A DNA stretch of 64,000 nucleotides from Terriglobia bacterium (GTDB lineage: Bacteria; Acidobacteriota; Terriglobia; UBA7540; JAPUME01), in the NCBI GenBank assembly GCA_965222885.1, contig OZ244973.1, positions 3,141,664 to 3,205,663 on the forward strand, in the 5' to 3' direction. A model generated the notes under the pieces. The model worked only from the letters and a program-made list of their open reading frames with translations. It was not told the origin of the DNA and did not search any database. How positions within the stretch are numbered: the first letter of the stretch is position 1; each line of letters starts with the position of its first letter. Shown one piece after another: positions 45,293 to 64,000 of the stretch. The position numbers were made by a program, and so were the translations under genes.

Positions 45293-45325
45293 AACCGATG
45301 CCGAGAAATTCAAAAGAGGACATGT

Positions 45326-47756: not shown

Positions 47757-48517
47757 TTGACCGGTCCGCAACCCTTGCCCAAGCCGGGGTTGGTGACAAT
47801 GGCCGCTGTAATGAATCGCTTGGCCACGTGCACCGCTTCTGCAAGTTCCTGGCCTTTTGCCAAGCCTGCCGTGATGGCCGCCGAGTAGGTGCAGCCGGTG
47901 CCGTGAGTGTTTTTTGTCGGTTCACGCCGGGCGACCAACCTCTGGAATTCACCTCGGTAATAGAGTAGATCCACCGCATCCCGGTCCAGGTGACCTCCCT
48001 TCACCAGGACTGCTTTCGGGCCTGTCGCGGAAATTCGCCGCGCCGCCGCTGCCATCGACTTCTCATCTTGAACCGGGAAGCCCGCCAGTTCGGCCGCCTC
48101 GTAAAGATTCGGGGTGATTAAAAAGGTCTCCGGCAGAAGAGAGGACAGGAGCGCCTCACGGGCATCGTCGACGATCAACGGTGCCCCGTGTTTGCTGATC
48201 ATTACCGGATCAACCACCAGTGGGAAGGACCAGCTTCGGGCGCATCCGGCAACGACCCGGATAATTTCCGCGGTACCCAAGGCACCCGTCTTCGCGGCCT
48301 GGGGAAGAATGTCCTCGATGACAGCCTCCAGTTGCTCGCCTACCAGACTCGCAGGCATGGGCTCGACGGTACTCACGCGCCGGGTGTTCTGCACCGTGAC
48401 GAGCGTCACCGCACTCATGCCATAAACACCGAATTGATGAAAGGTTTTCAGGTCCGCCTGAAGTCCGGCGCCCCCGGAAGGATCCGAGCCGGCGATGGTA
48501 AGCGCTACGGGGATCAT
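47675..48517 (-). CDS. thiD: Hydroxymethylpyrimidine/phosphomethylpyrimidine kinase
   Basis: 'ALTIAGSDPSGGAGLQADLKTF', 'KTGALG' and 'HGTGCTYSAAITAGLA'. The ATG overlaps the tenA stop (ATGA at 48514-48517). Confidence 0.9.
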   Translation of the reverse strand: MIPVALTIAGSDPSGGAGLQADLKTFHQFGVYGMSAVTLVTVQNTRRVSTVEPMPASLVGEQLEAVIEDILPQAAKTGALGTAEIIRVVAGCARSWSFPLVVDPVMISKHGAPLIVDDAREALLSSLLPETFLITPNLYEAAELAGFPVQDEKSMAAAARRISATGPKAVLVKGGHLDRDAVDLLYYRGEFQRLVARREPTKNTHGTGCTYSAAITAGLAKGQELAEAVHVAKRFITAAIVTNPGLGKGCGPVNHHAAGSSGILDAPKARLEVEPRPRPT

Positions 48518-49137
48518 CGAGGCTTCTCCATCGCATCGGAAAAGAAATCGAACTCACACTGCATAGCGTAACGATAGCAGGTCCGCACGGCAGGGGCATC
48601 CGTCGCCAGCCGATCCAGGAGGCCCTCCACACGGGAAGCCAACTCCATGAACTCCCCGCTGCTGTAGGCGGCAATCCAGCGCCGATAAGGGTGGCCATCG
48701 CTCGCAGCCGAGGCCAGCTCGGCACCCAGATAAGCATAAAGGCGCATGCATGGGGTTATCGCCGCCAACGTTTCCGCCGGTGAGGTGTGCCATGCGGTGT
48801 GTAAAAGAAAGTCCGTGTAGGATTCACAAGCGTGGTTCGGAATCACATCCCCCAGCTCAATCCCCAATTCCACCGCATAGGCTCGATGCATCTCCAACTC
48901 CTCCAGGACTCCACTCATCAAAGCGTGAAGATCACACTGGGCCGCAGCATCCTTCGTCCGGGCCAGCGCCAGCGAGTAAGCCTTGAGAAAGGCGCGCAGG
49001 AAAAAGGCATCTTGGGCCACATAACCGGAAAACAAGCCGGCCTCCAAGGTTCCGCCGCGCAGGGCCGAAACAAACGGATGCCTCAGGCAGGAGGCTGCCA
49101 AATCCTGATTCGAGGTCCAGAGTTTTTCATGGAGCAT
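48514..49137 (-). CDS. tenA: TenA-family aminopyrimidine aminohydrolase (thiaminase II), Cys-containing type
   Basis: 'HPFVSALRGGTLEAGLFSGYVAQDAFFL'. The segment 'LAAITPCMRLYAYLG' aligns with B. subtilis TenA 'LAALLPCYWLYYEVG', which contains the catalytic Cys135. Confidence 0.85.
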   Translation of the reverse strand: MLHEKLWTSNQDLAASCLRHPFVSALRGGTLEAGLFSGYVAQDAFFLRAFLKAYSLALARTKDAAAQCDLHALMSGVLEELEMHRAYAVELGIELGDVIPNHACESYTDFLLHTAWHTSPAETLAAITPCMRLYAYLGAELASAASDGHPYRRWIAAYSSGEFMELASRVEGLLDRLATDAPAVRTCYRYAMQCEFDFFSDAMEKPR

Positions 49138-49755
49138 TCAGCCCTCCCACGTCATCTTCCAGAAGTCGCGCTCGTGCCGTAGGACAGAATCGAAGGCCCT
49201 TTGTGCTCCCTCGTGCGGGTATCTTGCGGACAGAGCACCCAGCGCTGATACGTACTCGGCAAAGGCCGGATTCGACCACCGTTCAATGAACTCAGCGTAA
49301 GGTCCCTTTGCCTCCAGCCCACTCCAGGCCGCCAGATAGGAGACCTCCACGCCGAACAATATCGCCAGCAGCACCGGATAGGGTTCTCCGTAGGCGGACC
49401 GGACCAGAAAATCAATGTAGCTGCGGCAGGTCGGATGGGGCAGCACGTCAAGCTCGATTTTCCGGTGGCGCGAATGCGTCTCAAACCAATCCATTTCGCT
49501 ATCCAACGCGATAAGCCCGGAAATCAGGGGCTTGTGGCAATCACGAGGCGCCTTGGAAAGAAGGATGGCCTGGAAAGTCGTCAAGCCCTTCGCAAACAGG
49601 TAGTCCTGCGAGAGCCAGCAGTGGAAAGCATTCTCCGCAAGGCTTCCTTCGGCCAGTGCATCGAGAAAGGGTGAGCGGGTCGCCTCCTGCCACAATGCAC
49701 CGGCCGCCCGAATGAGATAGGAGTCATCCCATGAACGCTTTACCGTCTTCTGCAT
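49138..49755 (-). CDS. TenA-family protein lacking the catalytic Cys (TenA_E-like)
   Basis: 'SPFLDALAEGSLAENAFHCWLSQDYLFA' has the same fold signature. The segment equivalent to the Cys loop reads 'LLAILFGVEVSYLAAW' (F-G instead of P-C). It abuts the downstream tenA with no gap. Confidence 0.8.
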   Translation of the reverse strand: MQKTVKRSWDDSYLIRAAGALWQEATRSPFLDALAEGSLAENAFHCWLSQDYLFAKGLTTFQAILLSKAPRDCHKPLISGLIALDSEMDWFETHSRHRKIELDVLPHPTCRSYIDFLVRSAYGEPYPVLLAILFGVEVSYLAAWSGLEAKGPYAEFIERWSNPAFAEYVSALGALSARYPHEGAQRAFDSVLRHERDFWKMTWEG

Positions 49756-50097: not shown

Positions 50098-50745
50098 ATG
50101 TATGACATTGGGCTAGCGAGGGGGTTGGCCCCCTTCGATCCCCGCACCGACATCCACCCGATCGGTATGAAGATTTATGCGGACGGGGACTTCCTGGTGA
50201 GCTTTCACGCCATAGGCTCCCGCAATTTTCCCTATGCCGCGGGAGTGACGCGGATGGGGCCGGACGGCGAACCGCGCTGGACCCGGTTCGACTACAGCCA
50301 CCATTGGCCGACGCTCGACGCGGACGGGACCGCCTATGTCCCCGGGCTCAAGATTGGCGATGAGCCTCTCCCTTCCATTGGAGAGAGATGGGCGCACAGC
50401 CTCAACCTGCCGTGCGACAGTGGACGTCCTATTCTCGACACCGTCCAGGTAATCGACGGCGACGGCCGCCTGATCGAGGAGATCGAGCTGATGCCGATCC
50501 TCCTGCGATCGAACCGGGTCGAACTGGTGCGGCAGTCCGAGAGGGGCTGCGATCCGTTGCACTTGAACTATATCGACATTGTCGGCGCCGACGCCGGGCC
50601 GGGCCTCGTTGCGGGCGATCTGGTGCTTTCGTTGCGCAACCTGTCGCGTTTCGCCATCCTCGATCCGCGGACACGCCGCATCAAGCGCGTGGTGGGCGGC
50701 ACGGTAGCCGTAGCGGCGATCTTCTGGCTGGCGAGGCGCCGTTGA
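50098..50745 (+). pseudogene. Internal fragment of an arylsulfotransferase (ASST)-like beta-propeller gene
   Basis: 'DYSHHWPTLDADGTAYVP', 'CDPLHLNYIDIV' and 'GDLVLSLRNLSRFAILDPRTRRIKRVVGG' resemble ASST-family proteins. At about 215 aa it has no signal peptide or N-terminal region, and the C-terminal third is missing. Confidence 0.45.
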
Positions 50746-51044
50746 CGGACCTTAAGGCCAACTACTCCGTCATCGACCGCTTGGTGCACAACCTGGCCAT
50801 GGGTCAGACCGAGACACAGATATTGCTGTCCCGGATCGAGGACGGGCGTTTCAACAGGGACCATGCAGATATAACGGCGAACGCGCCGGTCTTCATTACC
50901 TCGCTGCCGCGGGCCGGCACCACGTTGTTGCTTGAGCTCGTCGCCGGCACGCAGGACTTCGCCGCCCACACCTACCGCGACATGCCCTTTCCGCTATGCC
51001 CGCTGACGTGGGACCGTCTCGCGCGGCGGGGCTGGCGGCCCTAG
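50742..51044 (+). pseudogene. N-terminal fragment (about 100 aa) of a sulfotransferase-family gene
   Basis: 'VIDRLVHNLAMG...' followed by the PAPS 5'-phosphosulfate-binding loop 'PVFITSLPRAGTTLLLELV' and 'YRDMPFPLCPLTW'. It ends prematurely at 51042-51044. The downstream sequence is unrelated. Confidence 0.5.
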
Positions 51045-51243: not shown

Positions 51244-51652
51244 CCCTCTGTGGTTCTTGTCTGGCGGGCATGGGAGAATAGGGCATGCAGCGTAAACGGG
51301 ACAGCTTAGTTCCCATCAGGAGAGTCTTCAGCAACCTGGGCGGCCCGGTGAAAGCGCTCCGCTCCCTCCGCACCAGACGCGCACACCTCCCCCGGACTTC
51401 ATCGGGACCGGTCCCATCCGTCGCCCCGGACCAGTCTCACATGTATTGGGATCCGGACAGTATGTTTATGTTACGGAGCACTCGGAACAGATTCTTCGGC
51501 CTTCTAAGGTTGTCCGCTCGAAGTTAACAGGGAGGTTAAAACAGGTGGGGAAGCTATGGATTATCGAGGCCCATATTGAATTTCGCAGTCTTTTTGAGTA
51601 AGGTCTTAAAAAGCATATCGGAAATAATTCTTATTGATCTGGGGATTTGGAA

Positions 51653-54199
51653 ATGAGCGGTCGGGGCACACTGCATAATTGTTTATCACTGGCTGGAATC
51701 TGGATTCTCACCATCGAGATGGCACCCGCGCAGTCGCCGGTCAGCTTTCATAGGCAGGTGCGACCCATCTTGGAGCAGCGCTGTCAAATGTGCCACGCAG
51801 CCGAACAAGGACAGGCCAACCTGGCGCTGACCAGTTACCAGGGTCTGCAAAAAGGAGGCAGGAGCGGCCCTGTCGTGGTGCCGGGAAGTCCCGAAGAGAG
51901 CCTGCTGATCCAACAGATCAGCGGTGAGCAACCCGCCATGCCGCAAGTCGGTGACCCCCTCAATCCAATCGAGGTGGGATTAATCGCCCGCTGGATTGCG
52001 GAGGGCGCCAAGGACGATACACCTGCGGCGCGGGGAACGGAAACCCCCAAGTGGTGGTCGCTGCAGCCGCTAAAGCACCCCCCTTTGCCGGAGGAAGACT
52101 CAAGCTGGATACGGACTCCGATCGATTTATTCATCCTGGCCAAGTTGAAGGAGAAGGGACTTGCGCCCTCCCCGGAAGCCGATCGGCGGACCTTGATTCG
52201 CCGGCTCAGCTATGACCTCCACGGTCTGCCGCCCAACCCCAACCAGGTCGATGCTTTCGTCAACGACCCTTCGACCGATGCATACGAAAAGCTGGTCGAG
52301 CGCCTGCTGGCCTCGCCGCGCTATGGTGAGCGCTGGGGGAGACACTGGCTGGACGTCGTCCACTACGGCGAATCGCACGGATACGACAAAGACAAACCAC
52401 GCCGCCATGCCTGGCCCTATCGTGATTACGTGATTCGGTCCTTGAATGAAGACAAGCCCTATGCTCGGTTCGTCGAAGAGCAACTGGCAGGTGACGTCCT
52501 CTTTCCCGATGATCCGCAGGGCGTGGTGGCTACCGGGTTTATCGCCGCCGGCCCCTGGGACTATGTCGGACACGCGGAGTTGCGCGAGGGCACCAAGGAC
52601 AAGAAAATCGCACGGCTCCTCGACCGTGATGACATGCTGACGGCGACCATGTCCACGTTCGTGAGCTTGACCGCCCATTGCGCCCGCTGCCACGACCACA
52701 AGTTCGATCCCATCCAACAGGAAGACTACTACAGCTTGCAGGCCGTGTTCGCGGGTGTGGACCGCGCTGACCGCCCTTATGACCCGGACCCCGAAACGTA
52801 CCAACAGCGTCGTGGACTGCTCAAGCAGAAACGCGAAATCCAAGCCGGCATCCAACCCTTTTCGGACGCCGTCGCCAAGCTTTCGAGCCCGGAAATCGAA
52901 GCTCTCGATCAACAGATGGATCTGCTGCGGGACCAACGAGTCCACCTGAACCATGCCAAAACAGCCGGAAAGACGCCGGAAGAACGTGCCCAAAACGAGG
53001 TACTCGACCAGCAGCTCAAGGCTGCGAAGGAAAAGCTCGACAAGGCCAAAGAACGTCGCCGGGAGTTGACCTACGCATTGCTCGACGAGGACGACCAAAG
53101 GAAACTAGCGACACTGCAGGAACAGCTCGTCCGGGTGCAGGAGAAACTGGCCGAATTTCCCAAGCCCCACATCGTCTATGCTGCGGCCAACCATTTCGAA
53201 ACTTACGGTAATTTCCGTCCCGCCTGGACTCCGCGCCCGGTACACCTGCTGGGCCGCGGCAGCGTGGAAGCTCCCGGCAAGCGGATGGGTCCTGGAGCCG
53301 TCTCAGCGGTCGAAGGCTTGCCTTCCCGGTTCAAGATCGAAGATCCGAACGACGAAGGCAAGCGACGCGCCGCTCTGGCGAAATGGATTATCGATGCGCT
53401 GAATCCCCTGACGTGGCGTTCCATCGTCAACCGCATTTGGCACTATCACTTCGGCAAAGGGATCGTGGACACCCCGAACGATTTCGGACGAATGGGCTCG
53501 CAGCCCACGCATCCGGAGCTACTGGACTGGCTGGCTGTGGAGTTCCAAAAGAACGGCGGTTCCTTCAAGGACCTGCATCGATTGATCCTTACGAGCGCCG
53601 TTTACCGCCAATCATCCCACGAGAATCCCCAGTACGCCAAGATTGACTCCGGCAACCGGTATCTGTGGCGGATGAACCGCTTGCGTCTTGACGCCGAGTC
53701 CGTTCGCGACTCGGTTCTGTACATCACCGGCAAGCTCGACCTGACGATGGGAGGGCCTTCGGTGGAGCAGTTCTTCTTCAAGGACGATCACTCTCCGGTT
53801 TACGATTACACCCGGTTTGATCTCGATAGTCCCACGAGTTACCGGAGAAGTATCTATCGTTTTCTCGTGCGCAGCGTCCCTGACCCTTTCATGGAGAGTC
53901 TTGACTGTCCCGATCCCTCGCTGCTGACTCCCAAGCGAAACAGTACGCTTACGGCCATCCAAGCGCTGGCGCTGCTCAATGACCCCCTCATCGTGAAGCA
54001 GGCGGAGCACTTCGCCGCCCGGCTGCGAAAGGCCGGTAACGATTTACCGAACCAGATCGAGGCGGCCTACCATCTGGCGCTGGGCCGAGCCCCCCGTACC
54101 GATGAGTCCCGGATGCTCGCCGTCTATGCGGAGACGCACGGGCTTGAGAACCTGTGCCGACTGATTTTCAACAGCAACGAGTTTATGTTTGTGGATTGA
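51653..54199 (+). CDS. PSCyt1/DUF1549/DUF1553 protein (intact)
   Basis: 'CQMCHAAE' (CxxCH), 'SPRYGERWGRHWLDVVHYGESHGYDKD', 'CARCHDHKFDPIQQEDYY', a coiled-coil middle region, and a PSD1-type C-terminus 'LIFNSNEFMFVD'. ATG at 51653 is preferred over TTG at 51647. Confidence 0.9.
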   Translation: MSGRGTLHNCLSLAGIWILTIEMAPAQSPVSFHRQVRPILEQRCQMCHAAEQGQANLALTSYQGLQKGGRSGPVVVPGSPEESLLIQQISGEQPAMPQVGDPLNPIEVGLIARWIAEGAKDDTPAARGTETPKWWSLQPLKHPPLPEEDSSWIRTPIDLFILAKLKEKGLAPSPEADRRTLIRRLSYDLHGLPPNPNQVDAFVNDPSTDAYEKLVERLLASPRYGERWGRHWLDVVHYGESHGYDKDKPRRHAWPYRDYVIRSLNEDKPYARFVEEQLAGDVLFPDDPQGVVATGFIAAGPWDYVGHAELREGTKDKKIARLLDRDDMLTATMSTFVSLTAHCARCHDHKFDPIQQEDYYSLQAVFAGVDRADRPYDPDPETYQQRRGLLKQKREIQAGIQPFSDAVAKLSSPEIEALDQQMDLLRDQRVHLNHAKTAGKTPEERAQNEVLDQQLKAAKEKLDKAKERRRELTYALLDEDDQRKLATLQEQLVRVQEKLAEFPKPHIVYAAANHFETYGNFRPAWTPRPVHLLGRGSVEAPGKRMGPGAVSAVEGLPSRFKIEDPNDEGKRRAALAKWIIDALNPLTWRSIVNRIWHYHFGKGIVDTPNDFGRMGSQPTHPELLDWLAVEFQKNGGSFKDLHRLILTSAVYRQSSHENPQYAKIDSGNRYLWRMNRLRLDAESVRDSVLYITGKLDLTMGGPSVEQFFFKDDHSPVYDYTRFDLDSPTSYRRSIYRFLVRSVPDPFMESLDCPDPSLLTPKRNSTLTAIQALALLNDPLIVKQAEHFAARLRKAGNDLPNQIEAAYHLALGRAPRTDESRMLAVYAETHGLENLCRLIFNSNEFMFVD

Positions 54200-54217
54200 A
54201 AGGGAGGGAGAACCAAA

Positions 54218-55702
54218 ATGAGAAGTGACGGCCCGCACGGTTGTAGCTCCCAGCAATCGCCCATCGGCGACGAAACCGCCGTTCTCCCCACCATCAGTCG
54301 TCGGGAATTCCTGTGGAACTGGGGCGGCGGACTCGGCGGGATCGCGCTGGCGCACCTGCTGGCGGGAACCTCTGCGGCCAAGTCTCGCCCTGAGTTCAAC
54401 GGCGGCCTGCACCACCACGCCAAAGCGAAGCGGGTCGTTCAGCTATTCATGTCGGGTGCGGCCAGTCAGGTGGACACCTTCGATTACAAGCCGGAAGTGA
54501 TCAAGCGGAGCGGAGAGAAATTCGACCCCGGCGAAAAAGTGGAACTGTTTCAGAGCGAACCGGGTCCGGTTATGAAAAGCCCCTGGGACTGGAAGCAGCA
54601 CGGAGAATGCGGCAAATGGGTAAGCAGCTTGGTGCCCCAACTGGCGAGCTGCGTCGATGAGATTGCCTTTTTCCACTCGATGATTTCCAAATCGAACGTC
54701 CATGGCCCCGCTACGTTCATGCAGAACACCGGCTATGTGCTTCCGGGATTCCCCAGCGTGGGGGCTTGGCTATCTTACGGGCTGGGCAGCATGAACGACA
54801 ATCTGCCTACTTTCGTTGTGCTCCCGGATGTGCGTGGTTTCCCGCCCAACGGTCCGGGCAACTGGGTGGCCGGCTTTCTACCCGCATCGCACCAGGGGAC
54901 CATGATTCGCGTGGGACGCCCCAATCCCATCCACGACCTTTTCCCGCCCGAATCCGCGCAATACATCACCGCTTCGGGCGAGGCCGACACTCTCAAGATA
55001 TTACAGAAACTGAACCGCGCTCATCAGGAGGAGCGGGGCGCCGACTCACGGCTGGAAGCGCGCATCCGTTCCTACGAGATGGCCGCCAAGCTCCAGCTCA
55101 GCGCTCCCGAAGTCATGAACATCTCGGGAGAGTCCACCAACACCCGGAAACTGTACGGAGTGGATGAGCCGGCCACCCGGGATTTCGGGACTCGCTGCCT
55201 GGTCGCGCGCCGGCTTCTCGAAAAAGGAGTCCGCTTCGTTCAGGTTTGGAGCGGGGCCGATAACGGCTTCCCGAGAAGGAATTGGGACAGTCACGAAAAT
55301 ATTGAAAAGGACCACGGCGACATGGCCGCGGAAATGGATCGGCCGGCCGCCGCGATGATCAAAGACCTCAAGTCTCGCGGTTTGCTGGAGGACACCATCG
55401 TCTATTGGACGACCGAGTTCGGCCGCATGCCCTGCAGTCAGGGGAGCAAAGGGCGGGACCATAACCCGTTCACCTTCACCTGTTGGCTCGCAGGCGGCGG
55501 TGTGAAAGGCGGCGTGACCTACGGAACCAGCGATGATTGGTCCTACAAAGCCGCGGAAAATCCCCTCTACTGCTATGACCTGCATGCCACAGTCTTGGAA
55601 CGGCTCGGAATCGATCACGAGAAATTGACCTTCCGACACAACGGCATCGACCGCCGCCTGACCGACGTTCACGGGCGGGTCATCCAGGAGGTTCTCGCTT
55701 AA
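54218..55702 (+). CDS. DUF1501 family protein, Tat-type signal
   Basis: GGGAGGGAG RBS lies 7 nt upstream. 'ISRREFLWNWGGGLGGIALAHLLAG', 'FMSGAASQVDTFDYKP' and 'GRDHNPFTF'. It lies 18 nt after the DUF1553 gene. Confidence 0.9.
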   Translation: MRSDGPHGCSSQQSPIGDETAVLPTISRREFLWNWGGGLGGIALAHLLAGTSAAKSRPEFNGGLHHHAKAKRVVQLFMSGAASQVDTFDYKPEVIKRSGEKFDPGEKVELFQSEPGPVMKSPWDWKQHGECGKWVSSLVPQLASCVDEIAFFHSMISKSNVHGPATFMQNTGYVLPGFPSVGAWLSYGLGSMNDNLPTFVVLPDVRGFPPNGPGNWVAGFLPASHQGTMIRVGRPNPIHDLFPPESAQYITASGEADTLKILQKLNRAHQEERGADSRLEARIRSYEMAAKLQLSAPEVMNISGESTNTRKLYGVDEPATRDFGTRCLVARRLLEKGVRFVQVWSGADNGFPRRNWDSHENIEKDHGDMAAEMDRPAAAMIKDLKSRGLLEDTIVYWTTEFGRMPCSQGSKGRDHNPFTFTCWLAGGGVKGGVTYGTSDDWSYKAAENPLYCYDLHATVLERLGIDHEKLTFRHNGIDRRLTDVHGRVIQEVLA

Positions 55703-56046
55703 AACCCCCGACTCAATCAGGACCCCCTCCGGTAGCGGATTCAAACTACGCTCGCGAGGACCTGTCCGCAGGTTTCGAGTCGAATATCAGGTTCAGGGCG
55801 GTCGATTTTTCTCGACCGGATGCATCGGCTCTCCCGCAAGCGGCTATCTTGCCGATCTGGATATAGCCTCCCGTTCACCGCTTGAGCCTTGACATTACCT
55901 CAAGGTGACCGCTAACTTATTGTTTTTAGACCCGGATGTACGTCGAATGCCGGCCCTAAATTTGCACCCGTCAATTTATCCCAGGTGTCTGTTGGGGTTC
56001 GGCGGCCTGCTTCTACTGCCAACAAGCAAGGGGAAATTTACCTCGG

Positions 56047-57594
56047 ATGGATGTCGGAAAAGTCTTCGCACAAAATGAGATTCTACTGACCGGGGGAAAC
56101 GGCTTCCTGGGAAAAGTGGTCCTGGGACTGTTGTTGGACCGTTACCCCCATTGCAAGCATCTCCATCTGCTTGTCCGCCCTCATGCAAATCAGTCCGCGA
56201 CCGAGCGGTTCACGGAGGAGACCCTACGGTCCCCCGCCTTGATCTCTCTCGCCGAAAAGCACGGCCAGGAATTCCTGCGCCAGAAAATCACCGTTTGGTC
56301 CGGCGATGTCGGGTTGCCGAATTGTGGTCTGAAGGGAGCCGAACGAAAACAGTTGGCGGTGCGGGTAAGCTTGATTCTAAACTGCGCTGGCTTGGTGGAG
56401 TTTTTCCCACCCCTAGACGACTCTTTTTACTCGAACGTCGGAGGAGTCGAAAATCTCATTGCCCTGGCCAAACAGTTCGGCGCCAAGCTGCTCCATGTCT
56501 CCACCAGCTACGTTTGCGGGTCCGCCGATGGGCTCATTGAAGAGACCGACCCCATCCTGGGATATTATCCGCGCCGGCAGGGCCCGGAAGACCAAAGCTT
56601 TATCCACTCCGAGGAGATCCGTGCCTGCCGGGAACGAGTCCAGGAGATTTATGATTCGGAGGTGACTCTCGGTAAAAGGGGCAGAAAAGCCGGCCGAGCA
56701 CGGCGGTCCAAGGACGTGGCCGAGCGGCTGGCCGAGCTGGGCCGCCAGCGGGCCGAGCGCTGGGGGTGGGTCAATACCTACACTTTTGCCAAAAGCCTGG
56801 GCGAACAACTCCTAGCCGCTGATGCGGAGCTGGAATATGCTATCGTTCGCCCGGCCATTATCGAGAGCGCTCTGCGGTTTCCTTTTCCCGGTTGGATCGA
56901 AGGAGGTCGCACTTCCGCACCGTTGGTTCTGATGGCGCTGGGCGGGATGAAAGATTGGCCGGTCCGCAAGGATGCCCCTCTGGAAGTCGTGCCGGTGGAC
57001 CTGGTTGCTTCGGCCCTCTTGGTAGTGAGCGCCTTGCTTCTGGAGGGCCGCCATCAGCCCGTTTATCAGTTGGGGACAGCAGACGTCAATCCCGTCTCGA
57101 TGGGTGCCCTGGTCAAGCTGCTCGACGCCGCATCCCGGACGCGGCTACAAAATAACGGGCAAGGGTGGAAAAAAAGCCCTCTCAGTCGCCGAGGAAAAAT
57201 CCGCTTCCTCTCAGCCGAGGACGCACGCGCCCGGCGGCAACGTCAGCGGACAAGAATCAAGCGAGTCCAGTCCCTGGTGAGCCACCTGGAAAAGTTCCTC
57301 GAGTCTGCGCATCTGTCCGGCTGGGCTTACTCTTTAAGAATCAAAGAGCTACAGGCTTCATTTCGGGAGCAGACGCTCGATCAGTACCTTCCTTTTGTGC
57401 TGAACAACCGTTACGTATTCGAGTCGGAAAATATCCGCTCGGCCTTGTCCCTGCTTTCCGAAAAGGACCGCACGTTACTTCCCTGGGACCCGGAGCGGAT
57501 CGACTGGAAGCATTACTGGGTTCACCATCAAGTTCCCGGAATCGAAAAATGGGTGCAACCTGAGGTTGTGAAAGACTGGTCGTTTAAGATATAG
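56047..57594 (+). CDS. Fatty acyl-CoA/ACP reductase (male-sterility/NAD_binding_4 type SDR)
   Basis: 'ILLTGGNGFLGKVVLGLLLDRY', 'HLLVRP', 'TNTYTFAKSLGEQL' (YxxxK), then a C-terminal extension of about 200 aa as in FAR proteins. Confidence 0.8.
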   Translation: MDVGKVFAQNEILLTGGNGFLGKVVLGLLLDRYPHCKHLHLLVRPHANQSATERFTEETLRSPALISLAEKHGQEFLRQKITVWSGDVGLPNCGLKGAERKQLAVRVSLILNCAGLVEFFPPLDDSFYSNVGGVENLIALAKQFGAKLLHVSTSYVCGSADGLIEETDPILGYYPRRQGPEDQSFIHSEEIRACRERVQEIYDSEVTLGKRGRKAGRARRSKDVAERLAELGRQRAERWGWVNTYTFAKSLGEQLLAADAELEYAIVRPAIIESALRFPFPGWIEGGRTSAPLVLMALGGMKDWPVRKDAPLEVVPVDLVASALLVVSALLLEGRHQPVYQLGTADVNPVSMGALVKLLDAASRTRLQNNGQGWKKSPLSRRGKIRFLSAEDARARRQRQRTRIKRVQSLVSHLEKFLESAHLSGWAYSLRIKELQASFREQTLDQYLPFVLNNRYVFESENIRSALSLLSEKDRTLLPWDPERIDWKHYWVHHQVPGIEKWVQPEVVKDWSFKI

Positions 57595-57754
57595 GCGTCT
57601 GCTGCGAGGCGCTGGTGGCCAACCTGGGGCACCTTGGGGGTACCCTGGGAGCCCACGAAAGTTTATTCTGGCAGCCCCCCTGTCCAATTCACTCAAGAGT
57701 CTCCCCTGGATTGGATTCGGAGGTACGGTAGCGACACAAGAAATACACTCTTAC

Positions 57755-60544
57755 ATGAAAACAGCCACCCCCCAGATCAGAGCCGGTGTCGCCGAGGAAC
57801 AAATGCTTGCGATTGTCCGGGAATTGCTGACGGAACTCGGCTCCCGGAAAGTCGCCGAGGCCGTCTCCCTTAACTCCTCCTTCGATCGGGACCTGGGTCT
57901 GGGAAGCCTGGAACGGGTGGAACTGCTGGTGCGGTGCGAGGCCCGGTTCAACACCCGACTGCGTGACGGCATTGCGCAACAGTCGGAAACCCCGGCTGAT
58001 TGGGTGCGCGCGATGCTCGAAGGGGAGAAGGCGACGGGTCCGAAGTCGGGTTACCGTATCGTTCAGCCCGACCAACTTCCCCCTCCCCCTCCACGATCGG
58101 TCACGACAATCGCCGAGGTGCTTCGCCGCCACACGGAGCTTGTCCCCGCCCGCGTGCATATCCATCTACTCGAAGAGGTCGGGGGCCAGGACATTACCTA
58201 CGGTCAATTGCTCGAAACCGCTCTGGGCGTAGCGGCAGGGCTGGCCGCCTCGGGCCTCCGGCGCGATGAAACGGTGGCCATTATGCTGCCCACCTGCTCC
58301 GACTTCTTTTACGCCTTTTTTGGAGTGATGTTGGCCGGCGGCATCGCCGTCCCCATCTATCCCCCGGCGCGTCCAGACAAAGTGGAAGAGTATGTGAAAC
58401 GCCAGATAGCCATTCTTCGCAATGCCGAAGTTCGTTTCCTCATCAGCTTCAAGCAAGCAAACCCTGTCTCAAAAATCATGCGTCTCGGCCTTCCCAGCCT
58501 GGTCGAGGTGACGACCGTCCAAAGTCTCAGGGAAAGGGGCGCCCATTCTCCGCTGCCCGCGGTCGTGCCCTCCGATACCGCTTTCATCCAGTACACTTCC
58601 GGTAGCACGGGCGACCCCAAGGGCGTGGTGCTCTCGCAGGCGAATATTCTGGCAAACGTCCGGGGCATCGGCTGGGCCGTAAAGGTGCATCCGCGGGATG
58701 TGGTGGTCAGTTGGTTGCCCCTTTATCACGATATGGGATTGATCGGCTCCTGGCTCTTCAGCGTGTTTTACGCTCTGCCGATCACGATCTTCTCGCCCTT
58801 GGCCTTTCTCAGCCGGCCCGAGCGCTGGCTGTGGGCGCTCCATGATTCGGGTGGGACGCTCTGCCCCGCGCCTAATTTTTCCTATGAGCTGTGCGCCCGG
58901 AAGACCCCCGAATCGGCTCTGGAAGGGCTTGACTTAAGCGCCTGGCGGGTGGCGATCAATGCCGGAGAGGCAGTGCTGCCCGATACACTGTCCCGCTTCG
59001 AGCAACGTTTTCGCCCCTATGGGTTCCGTCCAGAAAGCTATGTGCCGTGCTACGGACTGGCGGAGTCTTCTGTCGCCTTGGTCTTTCCGTCCATGAACCG
59101 GAGACCTGTGATCGATACGATCCACCGTGGCCGATTTGAAAATGAGGGCGTGGCGGAACCAGCCGGGCCCGAGGAACCCGACCGGATGCGTTTCGTCGCC
59201 AACGGCAGTGCCCTTCCCGATCATGAAGTGCGCATCGTGGACGGCGAGGGCCGCGAGGCCGGCGAACGGACCCAGGGCCGCATCTTCTTCCGAGGACCCT
59301 CCATGACCTCCGGCTACTACCGGAACCCGGAGGCGACGGCGGCCGTTACCACCGAGGACGGATGGATGGACTCGGGCGACCTCGGCTATTGGGCTGACGG
59401 AGAGCTGTACATCACTGGCCGTGTTAAGGATTGCATTATCAAATCGGGACGCAACATCAGTCCCCTGGAAGTGGAAACCGTCACCGCCGAGGTTCCCGGT
59501 GTACGTCCCGGTTGCATCGCAGCCTTCGGCACGGTGGATGAAATCACCGGGACCGAGCGGCTTATCGTAGCCGCCGAGACGCGCTCGACCCTCCAGGAAG
59601 AACTCAGTCGCATCAGAGCCGAAATCGTTAAGCGCGTAGAGGCGACCTTGGGCATCCCGCCCGACAGGGTCTTGCTTCTCGAGCCCCATAGTATTCCGAA
59701 GACTTCCAGCGGGAAAATCCGCCGGAATGAGACCCGTGTCCTCTATGAAACGGAGCGTCTCTACTCCCGTAAAGCTGCGCCTTGGGTCCAAATCGTTCGT
59801 CTTTGGTGGCAGAACCTGCAGGCTTGGCGTGACTTGGTTCTCCGTCAAATACGAACGCAAGCCAGCGCCCTGTACAACCATGCAATCCTGAATTGGGGGG
59901 GGATTTCCTGCGGGTTGCTGGTTCGCGCAATGCCCGGCGGGAAACGAAAGGCGAAGGTTGTTCAGGGAGCTACACGATTTCTTTGCAGGATTCACGGGCG
60001 GGGAGTGACGGTTCAAGGCGACGAAACCTCCCTCGGTGGAACCGCCTCGGTCTTGGTTGCCAACCGGCAGTGTTCCCTGGACCCTTTCCTGCTGTCAGCG
60101 GTCTTCCGTTCCCCTACCAAGCTGGCCGATGGTAACGCACTGGCGGACCTTCCCTTCGCAGTGGCGTTCCTGCTGTCCCCTTTGGTAATTCCGCCGCTTG
60201 AAGAAGCCTTGGTACCTCCGGGTGGGACCCCACGGCAGAGGATTCGGGCCGCATTGGAAGAGGGTTTTTCCGTCATCTCTTTTCCCGATGGGCCGGTGGG
60301 CATGCCCGGACATCAGAGCCGGTTCCGCCTCGATGGGTTCCATGCGGCCCTGGAACTGTCTCTTCCGGTTTTTCCCATCGGAATTCGGGAGACGCAGAGC
60401 TTCCTTCGACCCGGGAATGTGTCCGAGAAACAGGAGAGTCCGAATATTTCCATAGGCGAACCCATCCGGGTTGAGCCGGGGAAAAGCGTAAGGCCGCAGG
60501 ATGTACGTGAAAAGGTGAGAGAAGCCCTAAGGAACTTGTGTTGA
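57755..60544 (+). CDS. Tri-domain protein: acyl carrier domain - fatty acyl-AMP ligase (FAAL) - lysophospholipid acyltransferase-like domain
   Basis: ACP: 'FDRDLGLGSLERVELL'. FAAL: 'FIQYTSGSTGDPKGVVLSQANI', 'WLPLYHDMGLIGS', 'FLSRPERWL', 'GDLGYWADGELYITGRVKDCII' and 'KTSSGKIRR'. Acyltransferase-like: 'VLVANRQCSLDPFLL' (the H of HX4D is read as R) and 'SFPDGP'. Confidence 0.85.
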   Translation: MKTATPQIRAGVAEEQMLAIVRELLTELGSRKVAEAVSLNSSFDRDLGLGSLERVELLVRCEARFNTRLRDGIAQQSETPADWVRAMLEGEKATGPKSGYRIVQPDQLPPPPPRSVTTIAEVLRRHTELVPARVHIHLLEEVGGQDITYGQLLETALGVAAGLAASGLRRDETVAIMLPTCSDFFYAFFGVMLAGGIAVPIYPPARPDKVEEYVKRQIAILRNAEVRFLISFKQANPVSKIMRLGLPSLVEVTTVQSLRERGAHSPLPAVVPSDTAFIQYTSGSTGDPKGVVLSQANILANVRGIGWAVKVHPRDVVVSWLPLYHDMGLIGSWLFSVFYALPITIFSPLAFLSRPERWLWALHDSGGTLCPAPNFSYELCARKTPESALEGLDLSAWRVAINAGEAVLPDTLSRFEQRFRPYGFRPESYVPCYGLAESSVALVFPSMNRRPVIDTIHRGRFENEGVAEPAGPEEPDRMRFVANGSALPDHEVRIVDGEGREAGERTQGRIFFRGPSMTSGYYRNPEATAAVTTEDGWMDSGDLGYWADGELYITGRVKDCIIKSGRNISPLEVETVTAEVPGVRPGCIAAFGTVDEITGTERLIVAAETRSTLQEELSRIRAEIVKRVEATLGIPPDRVLLLEPHSIPKTSSGKIRRNETRVLYETERLYSRKAAPWVQIVRLWWQNLQAWRDLVLRQIRTQASALYNHAILNWGGISCGLLVRAMPGGKRKAKVVQGATRFLCRIHGRGVTVQGDETSLGGTASVLVANRQCSLDPFLLSAVFRSPTKLADGNALADLPFAVAFLLSPLVIPPLEEALVPPGGTPRQRIRAALEEGFSVISFPDGPVGMPGHQSRFRLDGFHAALELSLPVFPIGIRETQSFLRPGNVSEKQESPNISIGEPIRVEPGKSVRPQDVREKVREALRNLC

Positions 60545-60620
60545 AAATGCTGCCGGATTCCGGGTCCGGCTCCGGTGCCGTTTTCCATGGCACCCTTTTG
60601 TCGAGAAGAACAATCTTCCC

Positions 60621-61211
60621 ATGCTAGAAAACATCGCCGAATTCATTCCGAAGATCCCGCTATGCTTCCTGGTGGGCTCAATTCCCTTTGCCGTCGTGGC
60701 CATGGCCGGCTCGGGCATCGATATCCGAAAGGTAGGCTCCGGCAACCCGGGCTTCAACAATGTCCTGCGGGTCAGCAAGCCGCGGGCCGTGATCTGTCTG
60801 GTCGGGGATATGGGCAAGGCCTACTTGGCGGTATGGCTCTTCTATCCATCAGGAGACAACGTGGCTTTGGGATGGCTCTACGGGTTTGCGGTCGTTTTGG
60901 GGCATTGCTTTTCGCCTTTCTTGAAGTTCAAAGGCGGAAAAGGCATCGCCACCTCCAGCGGGGTGATGCTGGTTCTTTATCCCCAATGGGCCGCCCTCTC
61001 CCTGGCCGCTTTCTTCCTGATCCGCGTCACCGGGAGCCGGATGAAATGGAGAGAGGCCGGGGCACTTGCTTCCCTGGGCGCGTGGGTGGTCTTTGTGTTG
61101 TTCCTGTTGGTGTTCCTGGATAGGGCGGATGTCGCCTACGCAGCCCTCATGACGCTGTTTCTGGCGTGGCGACACAAGAAGAATTTCCAGAATCTGCTGA
61201 CTACGGCCTGA
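60621..61211 (+). CDS. plsY: PlsY-family acyl-phosphate:glycerol-3-phosphate acyltransferase (divergent motif)
   Basis: 196 aa with five hydrophobic segments. 'GSIPFAVV', 'GSGNPGFNNVLR' (canonical GSGN.GATNV) and 'FKGGKGIATS'. Confidence 0.75.
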   Translation: MLENIAEFIPKIPLCFLVGSIPFAVVAMAGSGIDIRKVGSGNPGFNNVLRVSKPRAVICLVGDMGKAYLAVWLFYPSGDNVALGWLYGFAVVLGHCFSPFLKFKGGKGIATSSGVMLVLYPQWAALSLAAFFLIRVTGSRMKWREAGALASLGAWVVFVLFLLVFLDRADVAYAALMTLFLAWRHKKNFQNLLTTA

Positions 61212-61244
61212 CGTACTCCCAGCATATTCGAAAGATGCCCACTC

Positions 61245-61976
61245 ATGGAAAGCGCACCGGTGCTGATGATGAAACCCCCTGTTCGGATGGCCTTCTACGA
61301 TTTCGACGGCACGCTCGCCTCCTCGAACGTCGTTACCCGCTACGCCTACTATGCCCGAAAGCTTCCTTCCCGGCTTCGAGCCGCGGCGAAATACACCCAG
61401 TTACTGGTTACGGTTCCGCTTTGGATCGGACTCAATCTCTATTCCCGCCGACTCTTCAATGAAATTTTCTACCGTCAATATCGCGGCCTGGAAAGGGATT
61501 GGCTGCGCAAGCTGGGCGAACCCTTGTTCGAAAAAGTCATTCGCCCGACGATCTTCCCCGGGGCGCGAGCCTTGCTCGAGGCTGACCGCGCCGCGGGCTT
61601 CCGCCTGGTAATGGTAAGCGGCGGGCTCGACTTCGCTCTGGAACCCGTGGTACGGTACTTCAGCTTCGACGATGTAATCTGTAATACTCTTGTCTATAAC
61701 CAGGGGGCAGCCACGGGGGAGATTTCCCCGCCCCTGATTGCCGAACAAGAGAAAGTAGCGGCGATCATCCGACTCTGTCGGGAGGCGAACGCCGAGGTCG
61801 GCGACTCGAAAGCCTATTCCGACAGCTCCTCAGACCTGCCGATGCTGGAAGCCATCGGGCACCCGGCGGCCGTCCATCCCGACCGGAGACTGAGGCTTAC
61901 GGCCCGCAAGCGCGGCTGGCCGGTTCTGGACCTGAAAAGAGGTGACCATGTCCACTGGAGCGAAATTGACCGGTGA
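61245..61976 (+). CDS. HAD-IB subfamily hydrolase (SerB-like phosphatase family)
   Basis: 'AFYDFDGTL' (DxDxT), 'LVMVSGGLDF', and 'KAYSDSSSDLPMLEAIGHPAAVHP' (the K...DS.sD motif of HAD-IB). Confidence 0.8.
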   Translation: MESAPVLMMKPPVRMAFYDFDGTLASSNVVTRYAYYARKLPSRLRAAAKYTQLLVTVPLWIGLNLYSRRLFNEIFYRQYRGLERDWLRKLGEPLFEKVIRPTIFPGARALLEADRAAGFRLVMVSGGLDFALEPVVRYFSFDDVICNTLVYNQGAATGEISPPLIAEQEKVAAIIRLCREANAEVGDSKAYSDSSSDLPMLEAIGHPAAVHPDRRLRLTARKRGWPVLDLKRGDHVHWSEIDR

Positions 61977-63639
61977 ACCCGTAACGCTTGATTACGAGTT
62001 TTCCGACCCCACTCCCAACGCCGTCGGCCGGCAGGCGCTGGTTTCCCACGACGGATGCGTGGTTTACCTGGAGCGGGACGCCGCTCCCCGGCTTCTGTGG
62101 TATGGCGAAGATCTGCTGAGCGTGAAGATGCCCGAACAGACCCGGGAGGTGTATCCGAATCCCACGATTCCCGGCCTGCGCGACCGGGACACAGCCATCC
62201 GCTACGCGATCAAACATCCGGAACAGATGGATCCGCTGGCCTCGTTGCTCCGGTCGGAAATGAAAATCACCCTCGTCATCGACGATATTTCGAAACCGCT
62301 GCCCATCATGCCCCGGCCCGACATCCGCGAGTCGGTCCTGACTCACGTACTGAAGCTGCTGGGTGAAAAGGGCATCGACGATATCCACATTATTATCGCC
62401 GCCGCGTTTCACCGGAAAATGGCGCCCTTTGAAATTCGGCATGCGGTAGGACCGCAAATTTTCCGGCAGTATTACCCGGACCGGCTCTACGACCATGACG
62501 CCGAGGCGCCAGATGGCATGGTGGAGCTGGGCGTCACCGAGCTGGGCGAGCGGGTGCGCATCAACCGGCGTGCGGCCGAATCGGACCTGATCATCTATGT
62601 CAGCATCAACTTGGTTCCCATGGGCGGCGGGCACAGTTCGCTGGCCGTGGGCCTGGGAGACTATGGAACCATTCAATCCCATCACAATCCGGAAACCATC
62701 CGGAAATGCGACTCCTATTTCGACAATAGGCGAACGGCGCTGGGCGATTCCACCGACCGCATCGGCCAAGTCATCAATCAGCATCTGAAAGTCTTCCATA
62801 TCGAGACGGTCATGAACAATGCGATGTTCCATCCGCTGTTACCCTTCTTTATGAAGAACGAGGACCGTTTTTCCATCCTGGACCGCGCTTCGTTTCGGAC
62901 CACCAAGTGGGCCCTAGGCAAACTTTCACGCCCGACAAAAAGAAAACTTCTGTTTTCCTTTCCGGCGGCCTACCAACCCATTTCCATCCAAGCCGGAGCC
63001 ACCGAGCCCACCCATGCAAAATCCCTGGCCTATTGCTATGCCCAGTATTGCGTGCCGGTCCAGGGGCAGTCGGACGTGGTCGTGTTCGGCATTCCTTTCA
63101 TCTCGCCTTATAACGTCAACTCCATCCTGAATCCCATACTGGTACAGGTGATGGCACTGGGATATTTCCATAATATGTATCGGCACATGCCGGTAGTGAA
63201 GAAAAACGGGGTCATGATCCTCACTCACCCGCTTTACGACGAGTTTGACCCTTTGCACCACCCCTCCTACATTGAGTTCTTCCACCGTGTGCTGCCCGAG
63301 TCGCGGGACGCATTGGAATTGCAACGGAAATACGAAGCTGAATTCGCGCACAACCCCGACTACATCCGAATGTATCGCACCGGGAACGCCTATCACGGTG
63401 TCCATCCGTTCTATATGTGGTACTGGGGAGAGAACGGTCGGGCACAGGTCGGAAAAGTCATTGTGGTCGGAGCCGAGGACCCCCGCGTGGCGCGAACACT
63501 GGGTTGGGAGTGCGCCGCCGGCATGGAAGAAGCCCTCGAAATGGCACAGTCTCATCTAGGGCGGCGTCCCAGCGTGACACTCATGCACATCCCTCCCATC
63601 AGCATGGCGGACATGCTCGGCACCCCGGAGAGTGTCTAG
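61942..63639 (+). CDS. DUF2088 / LarA-like (lactate-racemase N-terminal domain) protein
   Basis: 'KITLVIDDISKPLPIMPRPDIRESVLTHVLKLL' and 'IHIIIAAAFHRKM' resemble the LarA N-domain (..vaIvvsDiTRp.P....lp.ll..L / ..ATG.HR..). 565 aa, longer than LarA. It overlaps the HAD gene by 35 nt. Confidence 0.65.
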   Translation: MTMSTGAKLTGEPVTLDYEFSDPTPNAVGRQALVSHDGCVVYLERDAAPRLLWYGEDLLSVKMPEQTREVYPNPTIPGLRDRDTAIRYAIKHPEQMDPLASLLRSEMKITLVIDDISKPLPIMPRPDIRESVLTHVLKLLGEKGIDDIHIIIAAAFHRKMAPFEIRHAVGPQIFRQYYPDRLYDHDAEAPDGMVELGVTELGERVRINRRAAESDLIIYVSINLVPMGGGHSSLAVGLGDYGTIQSHHNPETIRKCDSYFDNRRTALGDSTDRIGQVINQHLKVFHIETVMNNAMFHPLLPFFMKNEDRFSILDRASFRTTKWALGKLSRPTKRKLLFSFPAAYQPISIQAGATEPTHAKSLAYCYAQYCVPVQGQSDVVVFGIPFISPYNVNSILNPILVQVMALGYFHNMYRHMPVVKKNGVMILTHPLYDEFDPLHHPSYIEFFHRVLPESRDALELQRKYEAEFAHNPDYIRMYRTGNAYHGVHPFYMWYWGENGRAQVGKVIVVGAEDPRVARTLGWECAAGMEEALEMAQSHLGRRPSVTLMHIPPISMADMLGTPESV

Positions 63640-63645
63640 CCTTTC

Positions 63646-64000
63646 ATGAAATCGATTCTGATCACCGGCGGCACGGGCTTTCTCGGTCAACATTTGATCC
63701 GTCGATTGCGCCGCGTTCAGGGCACCCACACTCTCCGGGTTCTCTCCCGCGGTGCCTCCCGGTGGGACCAGGACTCGGAAGTGGAAGTGGTCCAGGGCGA
63801 CGTGACCTCACCGGAGGATGTGCTGAGGGCTGCCGAAGGCGCCCAGGAAATCTATCACCTTGCCGGCATGGTAGCTCGTGAGCCGCAAGATGCTTGGCGG
63901 CTGTACCAGACTCACATCGAAGGTACGCGGAACATTTGCGAAGCTGCCCGGCGGTTCCAAGCGGAAAAAGTGGTGGTGGTCTCCTCCTCAGGGACGTTCG
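63646..64000 (+). CDS. NAD-dependent epimerase/dehydratase family SDR (5' part; runs off the window)
   Basis: Own translation from ATG 63646: MKSILITGGTGFLGQHLIRRLRRVQGTHTLRVLSRGAS...VVQGDVTSPEDVLRAAEGAQEIYHLAGMVAREPQDAWRLYQTHIEGTRNICEAARRFQAEKVVVVSSSGTF. It has the GxxGxxG Rossmann motif and is open to the window end. It is absent from the ORF table because no stop is reached. Confidence 0.75.
   Translation, partial: MKSILITGGTGFLGQHLIRRLRRVQGTHTLRVLSRGASRWDQDSEVEVVQGDVTSPEDVLRAAEGAQEIYHLAGMVAREPQDAWRLYQTHIEGTRNICEAARRFQAEKVVVVSSSGTF

Follow-up and report, generated by a model that had tools for sequence, protein, structure and literature searches.

The window analysed here, 64,000 nucleotides of the Terriglobia bacterium contig OZ244973.1, ends in six genes that, by sequence comparison, form the Terriglobia/Bryobacterales-type version of the elbABCDE gene cluster of Myxococcus xanthus. 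Homology of the locus to elb is close to certain, and we regard it as reasonably likely that it serves the formation of alkyl-acyl glycerolipids by the mechanism proposed below. In this version of the cluster, the acyl-activation and acyl-transfer part of the large ElbD protein has been replaced by a probably non-orthologous protein that joins a carrier domain to a fatty acyl-AMP ligase (FAAL) and travels with a PlsY-family gene. Judging from its sequence, ElbC belongs to the single-histidine subgroup of the nickel-pincer (LarA) superfamily, and no part of the elb system is more constant than the pair formed by a haloacid dehalogenase (HAD) gene and the LarA-like gene.

The six open reading frames (ORFs) all lie on the plus strand and fill positions 56047-64000 of the window (Table 1), encoding in order a stand-alone fatty acyl reductase (FAR), a fusion of carrier, FAAL and acyltransferase-like domains, a PlsY-like protein, a HAD-IB hydrolase, a LarA-like protein and a short-chain dehydrogenase/reductase (SDR). 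They are spaced by gaps of 160, 76 and 33 nt, followed by an overlap of 35 nt (29 nt with the ATG start of the LarA-like gene) and a last gap of 6 nt. The ORF listing confirmed this co-directional arrangement, and profile searches with Pfam and NCBIfam confirmed the domain calls for all six genes, both of which had been made in a first-pass annotation of the DNA.

The elb operon of M. xanthus (MIBiG entry BGC0000871) comprises MXAN_1531 to MXAN_1527, with elbA and elbE encoding NAD-epimerase-family proteins, elbB a HAD hydrolase and elbD a multidomain protein of FAR, acyl-CoA synthetase, acyl carrier protein (ACP) and AGPAT (acylglycerol-phosphate acyltransferase) parts (PMC9131029, PMC13012113). 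Genetic work in this organism found elbD, and probably elbE, to be needed for both alkyl and vinyl ether lipids and detected fatty aldehyde, and the adenylation and carrier activities of ElbD work in vitro (PMC9131029). Four of the six genes in our window have direct counterparts in this operon. The LarA-like protein is 55% identical to ElbC (MXAN_1529) over 528 residues without a gap, both proteins scoring over the cutoff of NF052592, and the HAD hydrolase is 41% identical to ElbB, both scoring over the cutoff of TIGR01490 (116.5 bits against 98.3 for the window protein, which carries the DxDGT and DSSSD motifs). The SDR was compared at its full 330 residues, as encoded by an identical locus on a longer contig (L001); it shows 41% identity to ElbE and 29% to ElbA, matches Epimerase/3Beta_HSD profiles in Pfam and NCBIfam and shares its HpnA-like profile with ElbE. 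The FAR, finally, aligns over its full length (515 aa) with the N-terminus of ElbD at 33-34% identity (E-values of 7e-85 for M. xanthus and 2e-87 for Corallococcus), matches NAD_binding_4 at 1e-50 as well as Sterile in Pfam, and has the GxxGxxG and YxxxK motifs.

That ElbC is the LarA-like protein follows from gene order as well as from this match. In Corallococcus exercitus, an SDR gene is followed by genes for a HAD-IB hydrolase, a LarA-like protein (838 bits with NF052592), a 1476-aa protein of reductase, adenylation, carrier and acyltransferase domains and an HpnA-like SDR; the LarA-like gene occupies the elbC position, its product is 92% identical to MXAN_1529 of M. xanthus DK 1622, and the M. 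xanthus locus (L085) has the same five-gene layout. The first-pass annotation had proposed an ElbD-like module within a candidate ether-glycerolipid locus, which the matches of the FAR, HAD, LarA-like and SDR proteins to M. xanthus Elb proteins support, and its suggestion that HAD-type and epimerase-type genes flank elbD is correct according to the published operon (PMC9131029, PMC13012113) and the M. xanthus and Corallococcus loci.

The same annotation had described the first two genes as a split ElbD with the carrier domain in front. The FAR does correspond to the ElbD N-terminus and the carrier does come first, but the second protein is not the remainder of ElbD. Its adenylation domain matches AMP-binding in Pfam and is FAAL-type, with PRK09192 (fatty acyl-AMP ligase, 425 bits) as top NCBIfam match and the FAAL structure 3pbk (9e-91) as top match in the PDB, and is 26-27% identical to the adenylation domain of ElbD, which is of the CoA-ligase/Aas type. 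The carrier domain matches PP-binding at 27 bits against a cutoff of 20.8, and its Ser51, in the motif LGLGSLERVEL, is kept in 237 of 238 aligned family members and replaced by threonine in the remaining one. The carrier-FAAL part is probably a functional analogue of the activating portion of ElbD and not its ortholog. Homologs of the whole protein number in the thousands at around 60% identity in Terriglobia and Acidobacteria metagenomes, and its architecture of ca. 930 aa persists down to 35% identity; the LarA-like protein is conserved better, at 70-78% identity to homologs. A search of a representative library with the carrier-FAAL-acyltransferase protein returned no fused forms of ca. 1450 aa among its top 150 matches. 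One long match (P0384) proved to be a di-adenylation protein, and the fused ElbD loci considered below were drawn from the genome scan with the LarA-like alignment.

In glycerolipid acyltransferases, the histidine of the HX4D motif is the catalytic base. The window protein has arginine at this position (NRQCSLD) where ElbD has the histidine (NHSSHLD), so that its acyltransferase domain (aa 751-877) is probably not a conventional one and canonical acyl transfer by it appears unlikely. The AGPAT-like domain of the first-pass annotation thus holds up as a weak Pfam match (25 bits against a cutoff of 23) but lacks the residue expected of an active enzyme. Across the architecture alignment (n = 238), arginine is found at the HX4D histidine position in 118 sequences and histidine in 110; arginine is typical throughout the close clade, with histidine in only four of the closest homologs aligned among the 120 matches listed.

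The PlsY-like protein matches Pfam G3P_acyltransf at 3.5e-40, scores 128.9 with TIGR00023, just under the cutoff of 137.2, and carries GSGNPG and GHCFSPFLKFKGGKGIAT. All 11 genome loci with the carrier-FAAL-acyltransferase form (HX4D position: nine arginine, one histidine, one unclear) have a PlsY-family gene next to the cluster, and eight further acidobacterial loci also have one, whereas the 36 loci with fused ElbD all have NHxxxxD and none has PlsY. Because PlsY tracks the one form and is absent with the other, we infer that it performs the acylation done elsewhere by the AGPAT domain of fused ElbD.

The assignment of ElbC to the LarA superfamily is based on the Lar_N profile (2e-34) and on NF052592, the model for LarAH14/15/16 (762 against a cutoff of 740). 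The closest solved structures are LarA_Sp and LarA_Bw (9Q2U, 9Q3K, 9Q3J), with E-values of 7e-36 (9q2u) and 1e-30 and both domains aligned. An AlphaFold model built from a 21-sequence alignment adds nothing, with a mean pLDDT (predicted local distance difference test) of 51 and a disordered C-terminal half. Functional positions were located in 81 ElbC-family sequences through the 9q2u alignment together with the residue spacing of L. plantarum LarA (His108, His174, Lys184 and His200). On this mapping, the catalytic His108 corresponds to H157 and the nickel ligand His200 to H248, each invariant (81/81), and the cofactor-tethering Lys184 to position 232, which is lysine in 79 sequences and serine in the window protein. 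The second catalytic histidine, His174, corresponds to V225, with valine in 80 of the 81. The loop around residue 232 of the window protein reads GGGHSS, the family consensus being DGGSKS, and the only other deviants at this position among the aligned homologs are P0122 (78% identical and likewise GGGHSS) and P0240 (glutamine).

With a single catalytic histidine, the ElbC family would not be expected to racemise its substrate. Valine at V225 agrees with the lack of His174 in LarAH groups 14 and 15, and the overall pattern fits a one-histidine LarA homolog that was suggested to shift hydride within one enantiomer without racemisation; a Frankia homolog of group 14 had no activity on the hydroxy acids tried (PMC7583248). 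These data bear on the idea that the LarA-like enzyme inverts a stereocentre of a glycerol-derived intermediate, such as glycerol phosphate or a 2-hydroxy lipid, and thereby gives glycerolipids of unusual stereochemistry. The superfamily does consist of racemases and epimerases (PMC7583248) and the M. xanthus lipid TG-1 is written as 'rac' (PMC9131029), but racemisation requires the very histidine that valine replaces, and LarAH groups without it are uncharacterised, with one member inactive on the 2-hydroxy acids tried (PMC7583248; bioRxiv 10.1101/2025.08.19.671153), making such an inversion highly improbable. We also did not carry over to ElbC the gluconate 2-epimerase function described for LarAH15 of Phytophthora (2024 JBC paper), because that enzyme has a GntE-like catalytic pocket, whereas His174 is missing from groups 14 and 15 as numbered in 2020. 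LarA_Sp and LarA_Bw have no assigned substrate (bioRxiv 10.1101/2025.08.19.671153). Accounts of the M. xanthus operon label elbC as being of unknown function (PMC9131029, PMC13012113), and a paper of March 2026 still leaves ElbC without an assigned one. A LarA homolog has been reported in 80-100% of Myxococcota without a lipid link being drawn (PMC11770544), and we found no connection between lactate racemase and ether lipids in the literature searched.

To place the cluster among genomes, we scanned one genome per species with the LarA-like alignment as query and kept the best 80 loci out of at least 600 matched stretches, of which at least 598 were confirmed as relatives; 51 of these loci have at least 6 kb on both sides and form the full-flank set. 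The 80 loci span about eight phyla. Among them, LarA-like proteins of Bryobacterales/Terriglobia are 59-74% identical to that of the window, the nearest named metagenome-assembled genomes (MAGs) reaching 70-74%, and those of Myxococcaceae (Corallococcus, Pyxidicoccus, Archangium), Binataceae, Planctomycetota, Gemmatimonadales, Thermodesulfobacteriota, Leptonemataceae and Dehalococcoidia are 48-57% identical. The LarA-like gene is immediately preceded by a HAD gene in 75 of the 80 loci. For the full-flank set the count is 50 of 51, and in two-thirds of that set (34/51) a FAR or ElbD gene is found within 10 kb of the pair, an ElbE-like SDR gene in about half (25/51). Carrier taxa include known producers of ether lipids or plasmalogens, namely Myxococcota and relatives of Leptospira (scan taxa; PMC9131029). 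In a Leptonemataceae locus (L071, from a Leptospira relative) and a Dehalococcoidia MAG (L077), the LarA-like gene is near a FAR gene and a histidine-bearing acyltransferase gene, with the HAD gene directly upstream in the former and ca. 3.6 kb downstream in the latter; CarF outside myxobacteria has been reported solely for Leptospira (PMC9131029).

Closer to the window, the six-gene order recurs at ca. 60-75% protein identity in other Terriglobia/Bryobacterales contigs, and two homologous contigs hold the complete series from FAR to SDR between flanks unlike those of the window. A gene order kept despite differing surroundings points to an arrangement that is selected and not accidental, and it answers the synteny check proposed in the first-pass annotation in favor of a conserved unit. 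A third acidobacterial layout does without the adenylating enzyme and has HAD, LarA-like, FAR, SDR and lipid kinase genes in this order, with PlsY on the opposite strand (L024, L025, L029). In six Bryobacterales loci (L026, at 9118-11626, and L023, L027, L028, L031 and L044; 59-63% LarA-like identity), the HAD-LarA-like pair stands alone, with no FAR, SDR or PlsY gene within 10 kb. The neighbors of the lone pair were annotated for L026 and are gltX, a zinc alcohol dehydrogenase gene, an ammonium transporter gene and glnD.

Such lone pairs would suit a different division of the locus into two unrelated neighboring modules that form no ether bond, one for phospholipid salvage or remodelling (the Aas-like carrier-FAAL-acyltransferase protein, PlsY, YegS kinase and CDP-alcohol transferase) and one for a soluble hydroxy acid or sugar phosphate (HAD hydrolase, LarA-like isomerase and SDR). 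It would also suit this division that every LarA homolog characterised so far uses a soluble 2-hydroxy acid (PMC7583248, PMC11770544), that the closest solved structures have been proposed to serve carbohydrate metabolism (bioRxiv 10.1101/2025.08.19.671153), and that the FAAL-PlsY part of one locus (L017) is ca. 5 kb away from its HAD-LarA-like part. On the other hand, FAR or ElbD genes directly follow the HAD-LarA-like pair in Myxococcota, Binataceae, Thermodesulfobacteriota, Gemmatimonadales and others, an adjacency across so many phyla that argues against chance juxtaposition, and the M. xanthus genes are one operon that is genetically tied to ether lipids (PMC9131029). We therefore judge a division into two modules to be improbable.

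The cluster itself extends past the window. In the longer contig (L001), the SDR gene is followed by a gene for a lipid kinase of the YegS/Rv2252 type, and the opposite strand encodes a CDP-alcohol phosphatidyltransferase and a classical SDR. The CDP-alcohol phosphatidyltransferase (L001 10134-10733, minus strand) scores 144 bits as an archaetidylinositol-phosphate synthase and 121 bits as a phosphatidylinositol-phosphate synthase, both below cutoff, which hints at an inositol-phosphate head group.

With these genes included, the proposed pathway to alkyl-acyl glycerolipids would begin with the FAAL domain adenylating a free fatty acid and loading it onto its own N-terminal carrier domain; reduction of this thioester by the stand-alone FAR would give a fatty aldehyde or alcohol. 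The LarA-like protein (ElbC) and the SDR (ElbE) might then carry out the redox steps that fix the chain as a 1-O-alkyl ether on glycerol phosphate or dihydroxyacetone phosphate (DHAP), and the PlsY-family enzyme would add the acyl chain in place of an AGPAT domain. The HAD phosphatase, YegS-type lipid kinase and CDP-alcohol phosphatidyltransferase would process the phosphate and the head group, and alkyl-acyl glycerolipids are the expected products. The FAR has the alcohol-forming combination of NAD_binding_4 and Sterile, the HAD phosphatase could free a neutral glycerolipid, and the elb pathway of M. xanthus also gives TG-1, a neutral alkyl-diacylglycerol (PMC9131029); all this would agree as well with a locus that makes fatty-alcohol-derived neutral or storage lipids (wax-ester-like or alkyl-diacylglycerol) or free fatty alcohols and aldehydes instead of membrane ether phospholipids. 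Yet domain annotation of the window and L001 found no gene for a wax synthase or diacylglycerol acyltransferase (DGAT) at the locus, and the adjoining lipid kinase and CDP-alcohol phosphatidyltransferase genes suggest attachment of a phospholipid head group, leaving neutral lipids as the main output rather improbable.

For the alkyl-acyl glycerolipid pathway, a more specific and more tentative proposal concerns the ether-forming step that is missing from the elb pathway of aerobic bacteria. A nickel-pincer-cofactor family made up of ElbC and its ortholog in the window may perform it, which we consider unlikely on balance. ElbC would remove a hydride at the C2 hydroxyl of a lipid intermediate derived from glycerol phosphate and keep this in its keto form while the FAR-derived alkyl chain joins, by analogy with AGPS (alkylglycerone-phosphate synthase) acting on acyl-DHAP; afterwards the hydride would go back to the substrate or on to an adjacent position, and ElbE would complete the reduction. 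If this were true, the ether lipids of Myxococcota, many Acidobacteriota and several other phyla would depend on nickel and larBCE.

Several observations weigh against these assignments, both for the locus as a whole and for its LarA-like protein. The serine at residue 232 of the window protein stands where nearly all relatives keep the cofactor-tethering lysine, and a regular-expression screen of the window and of all loci with 10-kb flanks, too crude to establish absence, gave no credible LarB-, LarC- or LarE-like motifs. Several Bryobacterales loci have no FAR gene within 10 kb or hold the pair alone among unrelated genes. In M. xanthus itself, neither the FAR nor the acyltransferase activity of ElbD was demonstrated in vitro, and the ether-forming step was left undefined (PMC9131029). 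Pontiella has ElbD homologs and ether lipids were not detected there (PMC11868695), and Solibacter usitatus of the Bryobacterales, which makes glycerol dialkyl glycerol tetraethers of the branched type (brGDGTs), reportedly has no ElbD (PMC10087280). For this organism, which is known from metagenome assemblies only, and for any cultured carrier of this cluster form, the function of the cluster is a prediction from its genes.

Table 1. Features of the elb-type locus in the window (positions count from the first letter of the 64,000-nucleotide stretch).
Feature	Position	Strand	Basis or remark
Presumed promoter region, 344 nt intergenic	55703-56046	+	Between DUF1501 gene (54218-55702) and FAR gene
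FAR, stand-alone, 515 aa	56047-57594	+	NAD_binding_4 and Sterile; counterpart of ElbD N-terminal domain
Carrier-FAAL-acyltransferase-like fusion, 929 aa	57755-60544	+	Pfam, NCBIfam, PDB 3pbk
Phosphopantetheine carrier domain	57851-58012	+	PP-binding, aa 33-86; Ser51 codon 57905-57907
FAAL-type adenylation domain	58166-59755	+	Best NCBIfam match PRK09192
PlsC/AGPAT-like domain without catalytic His	60005-60385	+	Weak Pfam Acyltransferase match; NRQCSLD at 60062-60082
8-bp GC-rich hairpin, then T-rich tract (CTTTTG)	60574-60594	+	Terminator-like scan; between fusion gene and PlsY-like gene (76-nt gap)
PlsY-family membrane acyltransferase, 196 aa	60621-61211	+	G3P_acyltransf
HAD-IB hydrolase, ElbB ortholog, 243 aa	61245-61976	+	TIGR01490 over cutoff
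LarA-like protein (LarAH14/15/16 family), ElbC ortholog, 565 aa from GTG	61942-63639	+	NF052592
Extended SDR (HpnA-like/3-beta-HSD type), ElbE ortholog	63646-64000	+	N-terminal 118 aa within the window, cut by its end

An alternative ATG start of the LarA-like gene at 61948 gives a protein of 563 aa and is the version chosen by gene callers. The presumed promoter region gave no site in a sigma-70 scan and no Rfam match, and promoter and terminator scans and an Rfam search of 55000-64000 returned nothing above chance. The hairpin ahead of the PlsY-like gene could be an internal attenuator; terminator-like sites, this one included, are no more numerous in the region than in shuffled sequence.

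The cluster is directly bordered upstream by two genes unrelated to it (51647-55702), one for PSCyt1/PSCyt2/PSD1 (DUF1549/DUF1553) and the DUF1501 gene, and a similar PSCyt/DUF1501 pair is found downstream of a homologous cluster, on the other strand, in L003. Genes for ThiD (Phos_pyr_kin) and TenA lie at 47675-49755, ca. 6 kb upstream of the FAR gene, and in the homologous locus L002 a ThiD gene (7348-8130) is immediately upstream of FAR, an arrangement suggestive of insertion of both the PSCyt/DUF1501 pair and the sulfotransferase-like ORFs in the lineage of the window. L002 also carries three tandem IS3-type transposase pairs (HTH_Tnp_1 and rve; 1-5043) upstream of its cluster. Farther from the lipid genes, the window encodes an ATP-sulfurylase/APS-kinase (adenosine phosphosulfate kinase) fusion at 34024-35820 (minus strand), two tandem type I phosphodiesterase-family genes at 37165-41261 (minus strand) and two overlapping ORFs with weak sulfotransferase/arylsulfotransferase matches (E-value of ca. 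1e-3) at 50098-51044, which together could be a sulfation-related neighborhood. Two UDP-glucose/GDP-mannose dehydrogenase paralogs around an NAD-dependent epimerase/dehydratase gene (43928-47756) look like a sugar-nucleotide modification set that is separate from the lipid cluster. A second AMP-binding gene, stand-alone and acyl-CoA-synthetase-like, is found at 41407-43260 (minus strand), ca. 13 kb upstream of the cluster.

The enzymology of bacterial non-isoprenoid ether lipids, including the acidobacterial ones behind brGDGT palaeoclimate proxies, is incomplete, and the ether-forming enzyme of the elb pathway is missing from it. The locus described here represents a form of the elb cluster that is widespread among soil Acidobacteria, and its comparison with other genomes isolates a minimal core of the HAD-LarA-like pair, mostly with FAR and SDR, of which the LarA-like protein is the sole component without an assigned step. 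For lipid biochemists, ElbC thereby becomes a candidate for the missing step with a possible nickel or cofactor requirement, and for the LarA field, elb places an orphan subgroup in a genetic context and in a tractable host, M. xanthus. With its His-to-Arg acyltransferase domain and accompanying PlsY gene, the locus offers a clear example of one module substituting for another in a lipid pathway. Relative to the literature searched, the placement of ElbC in the single-histidine LarA subgroup, the HAD-LarA-like pair as constant elb core and the coupling of the His-to-Arg acyltransferase domain to PlsY all appear to be new.

Compared with the elb operon of M. xanthus, the window cluster likewise has the HAD gene directly upstream of the LarA-like gene and combines an acyl-activating enzyme, a carrier and a PlsC-like domain. 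The two differ in that FAR, CoA-ligase-type adenylation domain, carrier and histidine-bearing AGPAT are fused in a single protein of 1470 aa in M. xanthus, whereas the FAR of the window is separate, and in that the domain order is adenylation-carrier-acyltransferase in ElbD and carrier-adenylation-acyltransferase here. PlsY, lipid kinase and CDP-alcohol transferase genes are additional in the window cluster, from which ElbA is absent.

In Acidobacteria, elb clusters of subdivision 4 (SD4) and the split form of elbD are credited, in the portions of later papers available to us, to Sinninghe Damste et al. 2018 (bioRxiv 10.64898/2026.06.23.733905, PMC13159169, PMC10087280), and acidobacterial elb clusters with split elbD and a nearby glycerol-3-phosphate acyltransferase, diacylglycerol (DAG) kinase and CDP-alcohol transferase are described there at the level of annotation (bioRxiv 10.64898/2026.06.23.733905, PMC13159169, PMC9426513), so that the window locus is of an already known kind. 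The first-pass annotation had offered it as a plausible locus for acidobacterial ether lipids whose genes are largely unassigned; homology to elb upholds the first part, but the link between Acidobacteria and elb was in print before. As far as these excerpts describe them, the elb-like clusters reported from SD4 Acidobacteria of soil and from Acidobacteriota and Poribacteria that live in sponges resemble the one in the window in having elbD split between reductase and adenylation domains and in their neighboring genes for glycerol-3-phosphate acyltransferase, DAG kinase and CDP-alcohol phosphatidyltransferase (bioRxiv 10.64898/2026.06.23.733905). By the same descriptions, which are the basis of this comparison, the window differs in coming from a Terriglobia/Bryobacterales-like lineage and not from SD4 or SD6, and the available portions of those papers mention no LarA-like gene.

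The peroxisomal-type pathway (FAR1, GNPAT, AGPS and acyl/alkyl-DHAP reductase; MXAN_1676-1674 in M. xanthus) similarly uses a FAR to supply the alkyl chain and an acyltransferase and an SDR-type reductase on the glycerol backbone, with a phosphatase and a CDP-alcohol transferase acting later. Unlike in that pathway, no FAD-linked oxidase/AGPS domain is found among the cluster proteins of the window and L001. Aas, the 2-acyl-glycerophosphoethanolamine acyltransferase/acyl-ACP synthetase, shares with the fusion protein of the window the joining of a fatty-acid-adenylating domain to a carrier-dependent PlsC-type acyltransferase, and profile searches match the adenylation domain of ElbD to Aas models. 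In Aas, however, the acyltransferase comes first, keeps its catalytic histidine and works with free ACP, whereas the fusion protein brings its own carrier, is FAAL-type in its adenylation domain and lacks the catalytic histidine.

Among solved structures, LarA_Sp and LarA_Bw resemble the ElbC family in keeping the first catalytic histidine and the nickel-binding histidine and in missing the second catalytic histidine, at whose position they have asparagine where ElbC has valine. Their gene neighbors are glycolytic or sugar-phosphate genes and not lipid genes.

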